Positions 23,773 to 63,021 are shown, counted from the first letter of the stretch. The stretch is 64,000 nucleotides of DNA from Escherichia coli (GCF_029227855.1 NZ_CP074356.1), one strand, 5' to 3'. Numbers and translations are program-made. The notes: a model not told the origin generated them from the sequence alone.

Positions 23773-24096
23773 CGATACTATAATTGAATCTCAGAAAGTC
23801 ACAGGCAATAAGGCAAAGCATATTCTTGAGGATATAGAAATATTCTATCGTAACAAACCCGATACTTATTATTAAATTTAATAATGGTTAGATGTGCAGA
23901 AATTATTACTCCACCCAAAAAAACAGGATAAGGAATTCCAGATAATTGGGATAAGCTTAACAATAAAAGAACTAACAACGTTTATTATCTCTCACGTAGA
24001 ACGATGGCATCAAAAAAATCATCTATAAAGAAAGAGTGAAAGCGACGACAGTTTAATTTCACTGCAGGCTGGGTAGCTCCAGCCTGCTTTCCTGCA

Positions 24097-57240: not shown

Positions 57241-57547
57241 AACAATTTCCCTTCATTGAATGAATGGAGATTTACCCAAAAACATTTCGGGCGGGATCGA
57301 GTATACACAACTAAAGCATGCGAATTACGGCGCGGGGAATTAGAGATGGGGTTTTAGGATAATTGGAATGAATATCAAATATAAGCTACAACTTATATAT
57401 AAATAACATTAAAAATCATAATGTTAAAATAAAAGTAAAAGTAATTAATCTGAGTATTTTCCGAAATCAATCACGATTAAAAATCTATTTTAGGATTAAC
57501 CTCACGGTATGATTTCCGTTAAATCACAGACAAGGGGATTTATCTGA

Positions 57548-57579
57548 TAAAACAATGCCGACATAACGTCGGCATTGTT
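57548..57579 (-). terminator. Rho-independent terminator after pgi
   Basis: AACAATGCCGAC-loop-GTCGGCATTGTT hairpin with a T-run on the minus strand. Confidence 0.8.
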
Positions 57580-57594
57580 ATTAAGGTTTTTAAA

Positions 57595-59244
57595 TTAACC
57601 GCGCCACGCTTTATAGCGGTTAATCAGACCATTGGTCGAGCTATCGTGGCTGCTGATTTCTTTATCATCTTTCAGCTCTGGCAGAATACGGTTTGCCAGT
57701 TGTTTACCCAGCTCCACGCCCCACTGGTCGAAGGTGAAGATGTTCAGGATCACGCCCTGAGTAAAGATTTTGTGCTCATACAGCGCAATCAACGCCCCCA
57801 GGCTGAACGGAGTGATTTCGCGCAGCAGGATGGAGTTGGTCGGGCGGTTACCTTCGAACACTTTGAACGGCACCACGTAGTCAAGCGTTGCCGGATCTTT
57901 ACCCTGATCGCGATATTCCTGCTCAACCACTTCGCGGGATTTACCAAACGCCAGCGCTTCGGTCTGGGCGAAGAAGTTAGACAGCAGTTTCTGGTGGTGA
58001 TCAGAGAGCGGGTTATGGGTGATAGCCGGGGCGATGAAATCGCACGGTACCATTTTGGTTCCCTGGTGGATCAGCTGGTAGAACGCGTGCTGACCGTTAG
58101 TGCCTGGTTCACCCCAGATAATCGGGCCAGTCTGGTAATCCACAACGTTACCGTTACGGTCAACATACTTACCGTTGGACTCCATATTGCCCTGCTGGAA
58201 GTACGCCGCGAAACGGTGCATATACTGGTCATACGGCAGAATCGCTTCAGTTTCCGCACCAAAGAAATTGTTGTACCAGATGCCAATCAGCGCCAGCAGG
58301 ACAGGCAGGTTTTTCTCGGCAGGCGTGGTGGAGAAATGCTTGTCCATTGCGTGTGCGCCAGAAAGCAGTTCAACGAAGTTATCAAAGCCGATGGAGAGAA
58401 CAATCGACAGGCCAATCGCTGACCACAAAGAGTAACGGCCGCCGACCCAGTCCCAGAACTCGAACATGTTGGCAGTATCAATACCAAACTCGCCAACGGC
58501 TTTGGCATTGGTGGAAAGCGCCGCAAAGTGTTTTGCAACGTGTTTTTCATCACCTGCCGCTTTCAGGAACCAGTCACGCGCGCTATGGGCGTTGGTCATA
58601 GTTTCCTGAGTGGTGAAGGTTTTAGATGCTACCAGGAACAGCGTGGTTTCCGGGTTTACTTTTTTCAGCACTTCAGCGATGTGAGTCCCATCGACGTTAG
58701 AAACAAAGTGCATGTTCAGGTGATTTTTGTACGGACGCAGTGCTTCGGTCACCATGTACGGGCCGAGGTCAGAACCACCGATCCCGATGTTCACTACGTC
58801 AGTGATTGCTTTGCCGGTATAACCCTTCCACTCACCGGAGATAATCGCTTCCGAGAAGGTTTTCATCTTCTCCAGCACCGCGTTGACTTCCGGCATTACG
58901 TCTTTGCCATCAACCAGAATCGGGGTATTGCTACGGTTACGCAGCGCTACGTGCAGCACGGCGCGGTTTTCAGTGCGGTTGATCTTCTCGCCAGAGAACA
59001 TCGACTTAATCGCGCCCGCCAGATCGCACTCTTTCGCCAGATCCTGTAATTTCGCCAGCGTCTCTTCAGTGATGCGGTTTTTGGAGTAATCCACCAGCAT
59101 CTGATCGTCGAAGGTTGCGGAGAACTTAGAAAAACGATCGCCGTCTTTAGCAAAAAGATCGGCGATCGTAACGTCTTTCATTTCATCGAAGTGTTTCTGT
59201 AGTGCCTGCCAGGCAGCGGTCTGCGTTGGATTGATGTTTTTCAT
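57595..59244 (-). CDS. pgi: Glucose-6-phosphate isomerase
   Basis: 549 aa from ATG 59244 ([19 protein letters not shown] ...). Confidence 0.97.
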
Positions 59245-59427
59245 TAGCAATACTCTTCTGATTTTGAGAATTGTGACTTTGGAAGATTGTAGCGCCAGTC
59301 ACAGAAAAATGTGATGGTTTTAGTGCCGTTAGCGTAATGTTGAGTGTAAACCCTTAGCGCAGTGAAGCATTTATTAGCTGAACTACTGACCGCCAGGAGT
59401 GGATGAAAAATCCGCATGACCCCGTCG

Positions 59428-59760
59428 TTGACAACCGCCCCGCTCACCCTTTATTTATAAATGTACTACCTGCGCTAGCGCAGGCCAGAAGAGGCGCGTT
59501 GCCCAAGTAACGGTGTTGGAGGAGCCAGTCCTGTGATAACACCTGAGGGGGTGCATCGCCGAGGTGATTGAACGGCTGGCCACGTTCATCATCGGCTACA
59601 GGGGCTGAATCCCCTGGGTTGTCACCAGAAGCGTTCGCAGTCGGGCGTTTCGCAAGTGGTGGAGCACTTCTGGGTGAAAATAGTAGCGAAGTATCGCTCT
59701 GCGCCCACCCGTCTTCCGCTCTTCCCTTGTGCCAAGGCTGAAAATGGATCCCCTGACACG
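59428..59760 (+). promoter_or_regulatory. lysC promoter and 5-prime leader containing the lysine riboswitch (L box)
   Basis: -35 TTGACA at 59428-59433; long GC-rich structured leader with L-box-like elements (AGAGGCGC ..., GGAGG, CCGAGG, GGCTG ... ACCAGAAG) ending at the SD GAGGTAG before ATG 59769; aptamer boundaries approximate. Confidence 0.65.
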
Positions 59761-59768
59761 AGGTAGTT

Positions 59769-61118
59769 ATGTCTGAAATTGTTGTCTCCAAATTTGGCGG
59801 TACCAGCGTAGCTGATTTTGACGCCATGAACCGCAGCGCTGATATTGTGCTTTCTGATGCCAACGTGCGTTTAGTAGTCCTCTCGGCTTCTGCTGGTATC
59901 ACTAATCTGCTGGTCGCTTTAGCGGAAGGGCTGGAACCTGGCGAGCGATTCGAAAAACTCGACGCTATTCGCAACATCCAGTTTGCCATTCTGGAACGTC
60001 TGCGTTACCCGAACGTTATCCGTGAAGAGATTGAACGTCTGCTGGAGAACATTACTGTTCTGGCAGAAGCGGCGGCGCTGGCAACGTCTCCGGCGCTGAC
60101 AGATGAGCTGGTCAGCCACGGCGAGCTGATGTCGACCCTGCTGTTTGTCGAAATCCTGCGCGAACGCGATGTTCAGGCACAGTGGTTTGATGTACGTAAA
60201 GTGATGCGTACCAACGACCGATTTGGTCGTGCAGAGCCAGATGTAGCCGCGCTGGCGGAACTGGCCGCGCTGCAGCTGCTCCCACGCCTCAATGACGGCT
60301 TAGTGATCACCCAGGGATTTATCGGTAGCGAAAATAAAGGTCGTACAACGACGCTTGGCCGTGGAGGCAGCGATTATACGGCAGCCTTGCTGGCGGAGGC
60401 TTTACACGCATCTCGTGTTGATATCTGGACCGACGTCCCGGGCATCTACACCACCGATCCACGCGTAGTTTCCGCAGCAAAACGCATTGATGAAATCGCG
60501 TTTGCCGAAGCGGCAGAGATGGCAACTTTTGGTGCAAAAGTACTGCATCCGGCAACGTTGCTACCCGCAGTACGCAGCGATATCCCGGTCTTTGTCGGCT
60601 CCAGCAAAGACCCACGCGCAGGTGGTACGCTGGTGTGCAATAAAACTGAAAATCCGCCGCTGTTCCGCGCGCTGGCGCTTCGTCGCAATCAGACTCTGCT
60701 CACTTTGCACAGCCTGAATATGCTGCATTCTCGCGGCTTCCTCGCGGAAGTTTTCGGCATCCTCGCGCGGCATAATATTTCGGTAGACTTAATCACCACG
60801 TCAGAAGTGAGCGTGGCATTAACCCTTGATACCACCGGTTCAACCTCCACTGGCGATACGTTGCTGACGCAATCTCTGCTGATGGAGCTTTCCGCACTGT
60901 GCCGGGTGGAAGTAGAAGAAGGTCTGGCGCTGGTCGCGTTGATTGGCAATGACCTGTCAAAAGCCTGCGGCGTTGGCAAAGAGGTATTCGGCGTACTGGA
61001 ACCGTTCAACATTCGCATGATTTGTTACGGCGCATCCAGCCATAACCTGTGCTTCCTGGTGCCCGGCGAAGATGCCGAGCAGGTGGTGCAGAAGCTGCAT
61101 TTTAATTTGTTTGAGTAA
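59769..61118 (+). CDS. lysC: Aspartokinase III, lysine-sensitive
   Basis: 449 aa (MSEIVVSKFGGTSVADFDAMNRSADIVL ...). Confidence 0.97.
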   Translation: MSEIVVSKFGGTSVADFDAMNRSADIVLSDANVRLVVLSASAGITNLLVALAEGLEPGERFEKLDAIRNIQFAILERLRYPNVIREEIERLLENITVLAEAAALATSPALTDELVSHGELMSTLLFVEILRERDVQAQWFDVRKVMRTNDRFGRAEPDVAALAELAALQLLPRLNDGLVITQGFIGSENKGRTTTLGRGGSDYTAALLAEALHASRVDIWTDVPGIYTTDPRVVSAAKRIDEIAFAEAAEMATFGAKVLHPATLLPAVRSDIPVFVGSSKDPRAGGTLVCNKTENPPLFRALALRRNQTLLTLHSLNMLHSRGFLAEVFGILARHNISVDLITTSEVSVALTLDTTGSTSTGDTLLTQSLLMELSALCRVEVEEGLALVALIGNDLSKACGVGKEVFGVLEPFNIRMICYGASSHNLCFLVPGEDAEQVVQKLHFNLFE

Positions 61119-61262
61119 TATTTCCCTACTGGCGTATAACGCTCACCGATTGTTATACGCCATCCTCACTGAAAACATAGATTAAATAATATCTGAAAAG
61201 CAAAATCACTCCTGTAGAACAGTATTATAATCACCGAAAAATATCATTTAACAGGAGTGTTA

Positions 61263-62189
61263 ATGGCTACTTTAATGGAAAAAGATGCACTTTTAAACGG
61301 AGCCAGTCAGTGCATCGCGTTTTTATCAAATATCATTGATAATTGCTCAGTTTCGTCGCATCAGGATTCAGGCGATGCTCTCAAGCGATTAGTCAGCTAT
61401 CGCGATTATCTTTATTCTACCCCCGCTGAACTTGTTGATTTTACACAAGGTAAGATTCTCCTTCAGCAGGTAAGAACTCAATATCAGCATGAATTCAACA
61501 ATACTACGCATTCAGAAAATAAAGCATCTTTTGATTCTATTTGGCAGCGTCTGACAAATCATGAAGTCACACCGCAACAGCATCCCATTGGTTTTGTTTT
61601 AGGTGGGCAACCCGGAGCAGGTAAATCATCTCTGATTGAATTAGCCAAAAGAGAGACAAAAGATAATATAATGATTATTAACGGTGATGATTTTCGATTT
61701 CTACACCCTGATTTTAATTATATCTACCAAAATTATGGGGATGATTTTGTTACCCATACAGCGAAATTTTCCGGCGAAACGGTCGAACGTGCAATTGAGA
61801 GAGCGATAGTCAGTAAACTCAACATTGTTGTCGAAGGAACATTTCGTAATGCCGCGACGCCGTTACAAACATTAAAAAAACTCAAAGATGCAGGCTACCA
61901 AACAGAAGTCATGATAAAAACAACCTCAGCGGCATTAAGCTGGGAAAGCACCAATGAACGGTATAGTAAGGACAAAGAGGCGGGAAATATTGCCCGAAAA
62001 GTGGATAAAAACCACCATGATATCGTCACCGGTTTGCTGGCAGAAAATGCCCGCAAGGTGTTTGCTTCGAACCTGTCAGATAAGTTTGCGGTGTATTCGC
62101 GTGAGAAGATGATATTTAGTTCACAAGCGGCAACGAATGACGATATTGCAACACTTATACAGAATGAAATCAGCGGGAATACACAATAA
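61263..62189 (+). CDS. Zeta-toxin-family P-loop kinase with N-terminal extension (EzeT-like single-chain toxin-antitoxin candidate)
   Basis: 308 aa from ATG 61263 (SD AGGAG 61253-61257; ORF track starts at GTG 61257). Walker A GGQPGAGKSS around residue 115 and colinear blocks matching zeta/PezT (IMIINGDDFRFLHPDF, NIVVEGTFRN, ... HDIV ... YSRE); AT-rich. Confidence 0.75.
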   Translation: MATLMEKDALLNGASQCIAFLSNIIDNCSVSSHQDSGDALKRLVSYRDYLYSTPAELVDFTQGKILLQQVRTQYQHEFNNTTHSENKASFDSIWQRLTNHEVTPQQHPIGFVLGGQPGAGKSSLIELAKRETKDNIMIINGDDFRFLHPDFNYIYQNYGDDFVTHTAKFSGETVERAIERAIVSKLNIVVEGTFRNAATPLQTLKKLKDAGYQTEVMIKTTSAALSWESTNERYSKDKEAGNIARKVDKNHHDIVTGLLAENARKVFASNLSDKFAVYSREKMIFSSQAATNDDIATLIQNEISGNTQ

Positions 62190-62224
62190 TAATAAGAGCT
62201 GATGGCGTGAAATAACGCCGGGCT

Positions 62225-63016
62225 TTATGCCCGGCGCATTACCGTCTGGTACATTAAGCTATCCAGTTCCTTAACGTCCCCTTCTCTGCTATCCGGTAAC
62301 AGCGGTGGAATTTCCCCACGCGCCTGTTCCGCACGAATAAACGCATGTAACAATGGACGGCGCGGACCATATTCCGCTTCTCCTGCGCGCTGTTTACGTT
62401 CCAGTAATTCGTCTATTTCTGCACGTAACGGCGCATCAAGTTCGCTTCCCGCCAGTAACTCAGCAAAGCGCATTGGCGGCACGCCTTTTCCCGCTTCGAC
62501 CCAGCGCACGGCCAGCAGCGGACGCAGCACGTAAAAGTATTTTTTCAGTCGAACTTCATCGCCCTGCAAATATCCGCGGAAGTTTTTCTGCGCCATCGAA
62601 TAGTAATGCCAGCGCGCACGCAGCGGAGAAAACCACATTGGGACCATTGCCTTAAGCGCCGTTATCGTTTCTTCATCTTGTTGATAGACCACCGGAGAAT
62701 CCAGCCATTCTATCAGCGTCGGGTTCGCGCCTTTCAATAATCCCAGCGCCTTACGCCACTCCCAACCGGAAACATCTAACTCGTCGTCGATGGGCAGCTC
62801 GATAACATCGCGCGGCGGCTCCACCCGCAGATACCATTCCAGCGGGTGAACATACAAAAACCGTACATCGTAGTCGCTGTCGGGCGAGGCAAACCCCCAG
62901 CCGCGGCTCCCGGATTCACAGGCATACAGCACTTTCACGCCGTAGCGCCGTTCTATTTCTTTTAACTGCTGCGATACCCGTTCGCGCATCGCAGCACTGA
63001 CTCCATTTAATGGCAT
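62225..63016 (-). CDS. Polymerase-beta-superfamily nucleotidyltransferase, family not assigned
   Basis: 263 aa from ATG 63016 (ORF track starts at GTG 63025); motif ESGSRGWGFASPDSDYDVRF (GS-x9-SD-x-D); SD AAAGGGTGAG contains the stop of the upstream SPFH gene. Confidence 0.7.
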   Translation of the reverse strand: MPLNGVSAAMRERVSQQLKEIERRYGVKVLYACESGSRGWGFASPDSDYDVRFLYVHPLEWYLRVEPPRDVIELPIDDELDVSGWEWRKALGLLKGANPTLIEWLDSPVVYQQDEETITALKAMVPMWFSPLRARWHYYSMAQKNFRGYLQGDEVRLKKYFYVLRPLLAVRWVEAGKGVPPMRFAELLAGSELDAPLRAEIDELLERKQRAGEAEYGPRRPLLHAFIRAEQARGEIPPLLPDSREGDVKELDSLMYQTVMRRA

Positions 63017-63021
63017 GTTAC

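Follow-up and report, generated by a model that had tools for sequence, protein, structure and literature searches.

A palindrome in the Escherichia coli lysC riboswitch leader as a likely RNA hairpin and putative 5' structural cap

INTRODUCTION

A perfect 16-bp palindrome lies between the -35 hexamer of lysC and the lysine riboswitch of the same gene in Escherichia coli. The question raised by this locus is whether the palindrome is a site in the DNA, such as a protein operator, or a part of the structured leader RNA, and what it may do there. The question arose from a sequence-only reading of a stretch of 64,000 nt of E. coli DNA (GCF_029227855.1, NZ_CP074356.1), to which we refer as the window.

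RESULTS AND DISCUSSION

The lysC promoter and the lysine riboswitch

Of 5,426 E. coli genomes, 5,425 contain the segment from 59250 to 59800, which is 100% identical across thousands of complete genomes. At this locus, RefSeq has pgi on the minus strand, followed by the riboswitch and lysC on the plus strand. The features of the region are as follows.

57595-59250, minus strand: pgi open reading frame
59403-59423, plus strand: conserved block ATGAAAAATCCGCATGACCCC that directly precedes the -35 hexamer, a candidate for an UP element or the site of a regulator
59428-59433, plus strand: lysC -35 hexamer TTGACA, unchanged throughout the aligned leaders
59450-59458, plus strand: T-rich -10 region TTTATTTAT, with TTTAT..T.T invariant or nearly so in both types of leader
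G59463, plus strand: transcription start (+1) according to the published numbering of the lysC riboswitch, with the AUG at +307
59469-59484, plus strand: perfect 16-bp palindrome CCTGCGCTAGCGCAGG, mRNA positions +7 to +22
59485-59673, plus strand: lysine riboswitch aptamer, from P1 strand to P1 strand (Rfam RF00168; RefSeq riboswitch)
59674-59768, plus strand: expression platform, assigned from the sequence and the published mechanism (PMC10946432)
59685-59698, plus strand: small hairpin within the expression platform
from 59698, plus strand: C-rich region within the expression platform, the published rut and RNase E region
59760-63, plus strand: Shine-Dalgarno sequence GAGG, with the sequestering strand CUUGUG in the same platform
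59769-61118, plus strand: lysC open reading frame, ATG at 59769, lysine-sensitive aspartokinase III (RefSeq annotation)

An Rfam scan of the whole window confirmed the lysine riboswitch, or L-box, that had been recognized in the lysC leader: RF00168 matched the plus strand from 59481 to 59677 with 99.5 bits against a gathering score of 30 (E = 3e-25) and over the full model (positions 1-182 of 182), within the 5' UTR and 92 nt upstream of lysC. All helices of the five-helix junction P1-P5 are placed in the cmscan alignment. The junction is closed by P1, whose strands are CCAGAAG (59485-91) on the 5' side and CUUCUGG (59667-73) on the 3' side; the model pairs 59486-91 with 59667-72, and C59485-G59673 extends the helix. 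When the leader was rescanned permissively (E <= 5), no RNA family beyond the lysine riboswitch was found, and none that covers the palindrome. Lysine binding and expression switching have been published for exactly this E. coli lysC sequence, and in the mechanism described, lysine stabilizes P1 and the platform hides the Shine-Dalgarno sequence while exposing RNase E sites and a rut site (PMC10946432). The riboswitch of the window is at the same locus as the published one and identical to it in sequence (RF00168; Caron et al. 2012; Ghosh et al. 2024, PMC10946432), and its platform has the same Shine-Dalgarno sequestration, RNase E sites and rut site. There is no difference in the riboswitch itself, but the hairpin at +7 to +22 described below lies outside the paired positions of the Rfam model. 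In sum, the region is the already known lysC promoter and lysine riboswitch, and the riboswitch adds nothing new.

The position of the palindrome within the transcript depends on the start site. The Rho termination sites of lysC have been located at G349 and U354-357 and a C-rich region at about +240 (PMC10946432). Since the termination sites match g59811 and tttt59816-59819 only if +1 is G59463, we took this nucleotide as the start site; it rests on the numbering of one laboratory and may be off by 1 to 2 nt, and the start sites of other species were assumed from promoter geometry. With this +1, the C-rich region maps to 59698-59735 and the 5' UTR has 306 nt. The structured leader of about 340 nt that had been proposed from the sequence does precede lysC, but the proposed length included the promoter. 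TTGACA at 59428-59433 and the palindrome at exactly 59469-59484 are where they had been placed. The palindrome had further been described as sitting at the promoter; it does lie downstream of the -35 hexamer, but it is not inside the promoter. It is located 3' of both the -10 region and the start site and is, therefore, transcribed. The -10 hexamer is likely TATTTA (59452-59457) with an 18-nt spacer, as judged from its distance to the -35 hexamer and to the published start site; a consensus promoter scan did not call the -10 region at 59450-59458.

Most positions of the block at 59403-59423 are conserved to at least 85% in 77 distinct lysC upstream regions, with and without riboswitch. Promoter-level regulation of lysC besides the riboswitch is cited by Ghosh et al. 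2024 (PMC10946432), and judging by its conservation, this block would correspond to the promoter-associated DNA elements of the literature more plausibly than the palindrome. A second conserved block, GTTATAAG..TT.CT, is found further upstream, mainly in species without the riboswitch, and is likewise a candidate regulator or UP site.

The palindrome pairs in the RNA

By itself, a palindrome of this length is not beyond chance and thus unremarkable: the window contains four perfect 16-bp palindromes, compared to 1.3 +/- 1.2 expected from 100 Markov-1 simulations, and elsewhere in the window, near-matches to the palindrome motif are about as frequent as chance would have it (5 observed, 4.4 expected). 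Three other perfect palindromes, of 18 to 20 bp, are located as follows.

38516-38535: AGCCGGATGATCATCCGGCT
14946-14963: CCTCAAGTTAACTTGAGG
23868-23885: ATTATTAAATTTAATAAT

In the transcript, the palindrome folds into a hairpin with a stem of 6 to 7 bp and a CUAG loop (+7 to +22), the base of which is directly against P1. Alone, it has a predicted stability of -9.9 kcal/mol. Folding of the leader RNA gave the hairpin in both the MFE and the centroid structure. Since the MFE fold of the whole leader fails to give the aptamer (z -1.66), full-leader thermodynamic folding is not taken as evidence here.

The evidence comes from comparison. The set consisted of 80 Enterobacteriaceae lysC loci, one genome per species, to which Salmonella and Cronobacter were added afterwards; 43 distinct leaders from about 15 genera carry the aptamer and were aligned from the -35 hexamer. 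In all 43, the position of the hairpin relative to the -10 region is constant. Double-sided changes were observed at 7/7 pairs of the stem (the 7-bp stem as read off the E. coli sequence), and 88.7% of the cells were paired, compared to 20 to 45% if the 3' partner was slid by 1 to 3 columns. None of 500 column shuffles matched the observed pairing or covariation score; the shuffle and slide controls may be inflated, as the sequences are related and the tested structure derives from the E. coli sequence. The arms are swapped wholesale, with 34 distinct stem segments among the 43 leaders: E. coli and Kluyvera have CCUGCGC/GCGCAGG, Buttiauxella has CUUGCUCAC/GUGAGUAAG, Klebsiella has CCUAC/GUAGG, Kosakonia and Phytobacter have CCCGCGC/GCGCGGG, and one Enterobacter has AUCUGC/GCAGAU. 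Across species, the loop varies between 2 nt and over 20 nt, and the central TA of the E. coli palindrome is TT in a close relative, which argues that the central positions are merely loop. Among the 39 leaders that could be aligned in register, G·U occurs in 20 cells and A·C in 6. This excess of G·U points to an RNA helix on the lysC (plus) strand and not to a DNA dyad.

The hairpin was found in 46/46 riboswitch-type leaders, and within E. coli the palindrome is invariant in 5,420 of 5,425 genomes. The other 5 of the 5,425 fall in a divergent identity band, of which strain M6 is the one inspected. Its leader has a 9-bp tandem duplication CTACCTGCG of the 5' arm (corresponding to 59466-59474), and the hairpin is intact. 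With good confidence, the palindrome can be read from these comparisons as a plus-strand RNA stem-loop under selection for pairing, and not as a protein operator.

Other identities within the RNA were tried and rejected. The sequence-only reading had considered the P1 stem of the aptamer as well as the base of a leader helix. The palindrome is not P1 (59485-91/59667-73), which adjoins its 3' end, and pairs with itself. The suggested RNA helix of the leader comes close to what the comparisons indicate, but the palindrome is a self-contained hairpin and not the base of a larger helix. An intrinsic terminator or attenuator was rejected because a U tract is missing (the 3' context is CCAGAAGAGG on the plus strand and TAGTACATTT on the minus strand) and a terminator scan was negative. 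We also looked for long-range partners in the expression platform. The 3' arm GCGCAG could pair with CUGCGC (59699-704), but this platform sequence is constant while the hairpin varies, in Klebsiella, Buttiauxella and others. The 5' tail CUAC could pair with GUAG (59683-86), but GUAG is equally conserved where the tail is without CUAC, as in E. albertii, Raoultella and Kosakonia.

Possible roles of the hairpin

Taken together, we consider it likely that the region consists of the lysC promoter and a 306-nt riboswitch leader in which the palindrome acts as an RNA hairpin and putative 5' structural cap. In our model, the hairpin at +7 to +22 would fold first, as a short, G+C-rich stem-loop with zero nucleotides between its base and P1, and would thereby cap the 5' end of a long, ribosome-free leader. 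Folded on itself, the hairpin would prevent an invasion of the aptamer by the 5' flank and might stack on P1, and it would also limit 5'-end-dependent decay (RppH, RNase E entry or scanning) as long as the switch is ON. As a rough division of function, protection of the 5' end may be given a tentative first place, short of an even chance, followed by a possible role as a folding insulator or in stacking on P1; something else, such as pausing, is unlikely, and a hairpin without function is quite improbable.

Protection of the 5' end depends on how close the stem is to the first nucleotide, and in this respect, two kinds of riboswitch-type leaders can be distinguished. In the short ones (17 distinct, E. 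coli included), a linker between hairpin and P1 is missing in 17/17, and 4 to 6 nt (median of 5) are unpaired at the 5' end, with 6 in E. coli if +1 is G59463. In the long ones (n = 22), repeat-like inserts lie between hairpin and P1, and the hairpin is still promoter-proximal; its stem usually reaches the predicted +1, leaving 0 to 6 unpaired nucleotides (median of 1) from start sites that are assumed. Taxa with long leaders include E. albertii, Klebsiella, Raoultella, Kosakonia, Franconibacter and Cronobacter. For E. albertii and Klebsiella, the predicted unpaired tails are 0 nt and 0 to 2 nt, respectively. RNase E is slower when the 5' end is base-paired (review PMC3997798), and RNase E and Rho attack the lysC leader (PMC10946432). 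The stem that reaches +1 in the long leaders, together with the slowing of RNase E by a paired 5' end, would favor a protective cap. However, work on ompA and RppH from the Belasco laboratory reportedly indicates that 4 to 6 free nucleotides may suffice for RppH and the 5' sensor of RNase E. With 4 to 6 free nucleotides in the short leaders, and 6 in E. coli, classical 5'-terminal protection is therefore doubtful in E. coli. Protection of the ompA type needs a stem that starts at the 5' end or only a few nucleotides away from it. The 5'-terminal stabilizer stem-loops of ompA and papA (Emory, Bouvet & Belasco 1992, as listed in PMC3997798) resemble the lysC element in that a short hairpin, conserved in structure rather than in sequence, starts a long 5' UTR, and in the long-leader species also in that the hairpin reaches the predicted first nucleotide. 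The lysC hairpin differs from them in the 6 unpaired nucleotides ahead of it in E. coli (4 to 6 in other short leaders).

The inserts of the long leaders are ERIC- or MITE-like with self-complementary ends (cores GAGCTTAC...GTAAGTGAC, ends GTATTACC...GGTAATAG) and are present in one to several copies. In Klebsiella and Raoultella, the platform carries an extra insert of about 90 nt with inverted ends. The insert-bearing loci of the comparison set are listed by their locus numbers.

L006, positions 1109-1210
Klebsiella and Raoultella: L023, L025, L027, L030, L053-L058, L064, L067
Kosakonia: L029, L033, L035, L038
Further loci: L061, L062, L085

The second possible role, insulation of the aptamer, was addressed in silico. 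The predicted occupancy of P1 was 0.93 with the native flank, 0.92 without any flank, and 0.07 (median) with 30 composition-matched shuffled flanks, and the native flank was better than 67 to 100% of the shuffles in the nine species analyzed; this comparison is partly circular, as the flank is G+C rich because of the hairpin, and it leaves unexplained why the flank exists. Insulator or clamp hairpins that flank structured RNAs are a general design principle of synthetic biology. They share with the lysC hairpin the self-contained fold that is predicted to neutralize an otherwise competing flank; the lysC hairpin differs in being natural and in having a zero-nucleotide junction to P1, on which it could stack.

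Alternatively, the hairpin could be mainly kinetic, as a hairpin in the nascent RNA that stabilizes an early pause at about +35 and gives time for ordered folding of the aptamer. The pause consensus is G(-10)...Y(-1)G(+1), with a hairpin-to-pause spacing of 11 to 12 nt. A similar context is found with the RNA 3' end at C59497 (+35), 13 nt downstream of the hairpin base at +22, and pausing is known to matter for E. coli riboswitches (PMC5234074). The support for such a pause is pattern matching, however, and in the long leaders, an unrelated insert occupies the position 13 nt past the hairpin, which has been retained nonetheless. We consider a mainly kinetic hairpin highly improbable.

That the palindrome is functionless, a chance dyad or a relic such as the footprint of a repeat element, kept because it is harmless, is very improbable as well. 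It would agree with the expectation of about one perfect 16-mer palindrome per 64 kb by chance, with the repeated insertion of ERIC- or MITE-like elements directly after the hairpin, and with a flank that is neutral for P1 in silico, the occupancy being the same as without it. A harmless relic, however, is expected to decay or vanish in some lineages, whereas in about 15 genera, pairing has survived the change to many different arms, each of the seven pairs shows double-sided changes, and the hairpin is essentially invariant in E. coli. Its presence in every one of the 46 riboswitch-type leaders argues for some positive role.

The protein operator that the sequence-only reading had offered is not supported. 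If bound as DNA by a dimeric regulator (ArgP or some lysine-responsive repressor), the palindrome would act as a roadblock at +7 to +22 and would explain the reported promoter-level lysine control of lysC, and a perfect dyad over the early transcribed region is indeed in the classical position of a repressor, just downstream of the start site as in the lac O1-type operators that overlap +1. This reading is scarcely probable, however, since neither the sequence nor the spacing of the arms is conserved, and it fails the defining tests of an operator: across genera, the complementarity and not the half-site sequence is conserved; the arms change together, and a distance that varies between 2 nt and over 20 nt cannot be reconciled with a fixed dimer; G·U, which breaks the symmetry of DNA, is tolerated and favored over A·C by 20 to 6; related sites are not above chance in the window; and a far better conserved DNA block exists at 59403-59423, also in leaders without the palindrome.

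Apparently, the RNA hairpin is an undescribed element of an ordinary kind, a 5'-proximal stem-loop, and a modest addition to a known system. The text of PMC10946432 has no mention of a hairpin, stem-loop or palindrome, and the palindrome sequence gave no match in the full texts searched, although older lysC papers might mention the dyad. It is of practical interest that published lysC constructs that start from the native +1 all carry the hairpin, so that any effect of the hairpin on mRNA stability, P1 or early transcription is credited to the riboswitch.

lysC leaders without riboswitch

Apart from the riboswitch-type leaders, 32 loci of the comparison have the same -35, -10 and Shine-Dalgarno regions but a leader of about 75 to 90 nt that contains neither aptamer nor hairpin. 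Among them are Lelliottia, Trabulsiella, Pluralibacter, E. whittamii, Escherichia sp. E1V33 and most of the Citrobacter and Enterobacter loci that were sampled. Salmonella enterica has a leader of the same type. The following are among the riboswitch-less loci, with their leaders upstream of lysC.

L004, L005, L007, L010, L013, L018, L031, L044
L048, L051, L059, L070, L072, L075, L078, L084

The lysine riboswitch was absent from 15/15 of these short leaders scanned with Rfam, and five riboswitch-type controls scored 74 to 95 bits. Folding gave no stable 5' hairpin in the riboswitch-less leaders: their first 30 nt have a mean of -3.5 kcal/mol (z about 0), compared to -9.8 kcal/mol (z -2.3) in the riboswitch-type leaders. 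The consensus fold of the riboswitch-less leaders contains the Shine-Dalgarno-sequestering helix CUUGUG/CACGAG alone (E. coli 59727-59763), which covers the Shine-Dalgarno sequence in the OFF state of the E. coli leader. This helix is invariant in them and provides no double-sided changes by which the pairing could be confirmed. In some Citrobacter leaders of the riboswitch-less type, the -10 region is followed by an ERIC-like insert.

When E. coli and Kluyvera were aligned with Trabulsiella, Salmonella, Escherichia sp. E1V33 and Enterobacter, one clean gap of about 229 nt was seen (window positions 59469-59704), which ends at an invariant TGCGCC. Both ends of the gap fall within a direct repeat, whose second copy, 229 nt downstream of the first, is found at the 3' end point.

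59698-59704, plus strand: TCTGCGC, a direct repeat of the 5' arm of the hairpin, CCTGCGC (59469-75)

Across the junction, Trabulsiella reads GTACCTGCGCC. The joint absence of hairpin and aptamer in the riboswitch-less species probably reflects a single deletion and has, therefore, no independent weight.

The distribution of the two leader types is at odds with the species tree. E. whittamii and Escherichia sp. E1V33 (L004 and L005) have the short leader, and their pgi is 96 to 97% identical to that of E. coli (57595-61118 compared). The identity of lysC to that of E. coli is 84% in E. whittamii and E1V33, 85% in E. albertii and 82% in Salmonella. A short leader next to an E. coli-like pgi and an Escherichia-like lysC argues for leader exchange by recombination, as does the distribution of leader alleles off the species tree. 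We give even chances to a model in which a deletion bounded by CCTGCGC and TCTGCGC took half of the hairpin together with the aptamer and made the short leader, the alleles being exchanged later, even within Escherichia. If true, lysC would be a natural experiment in riboswitch loss in which the promoter and the Shine-Dalgarno helix were kept, lysine control in the riboswitch-less species would presumably be exerted by proteins, and the hairpin would be a true functional part of the riboswitch-type allele.

In the literature searched, we found no discussion of riboswitch-less lysC leaders; the original comparative paper may mention a Salmonella deletion. The short leaders make it readily possible to compare how one gene is controlled with and without a riboswitch, and they advise caution against transferring the regulatory model of E. 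coli lysC to Salmonella. This side observation is perhaps more useful than the hairpin itself, which matters modestly.

The region downstream of lysC and other features of the window

Downstream of lysC, the window contains an annotated segment with three genes that is present in about 1,424 to 1,633 of 5,426 E. coli genomes.

61257-62189, plus strand: zeta-toxin family gene
62225-63025, minus strand: RlaP-family nucleotidyltransferase gene
63022-63993, minus strand: SPFH/slipin gene
62216-62236: hairpin CGCCGGGC-TTTAT-GCCCGGCG between the convergent zeta-toxin and RlaP genes

In the O157 reference, yjbD and rluF follow lysC in place of this segment, and in Cronobacter, RlaP and RtcB are found downstream of lysC. 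The hairpin at 62216-62236 had already been noted from the sequence and is present as described; it has the shape of a bidirectional terminator without a clear T run on the plus side, and no connection to the lysC leader is visible. An inverted repeat, GGCGTATAAC...GTTATACGCC, is located at 61131-61161, 13 nt past the lysC stop codon, and lacks a T tract. Further Rfam matches above the gathering score in the window are the following.

14337-14477: sraL
42479-42602: STnc490
57437-57586: STnc430
7029-7099, 43752-43822 and 47981-48051: naRNA4, three copies
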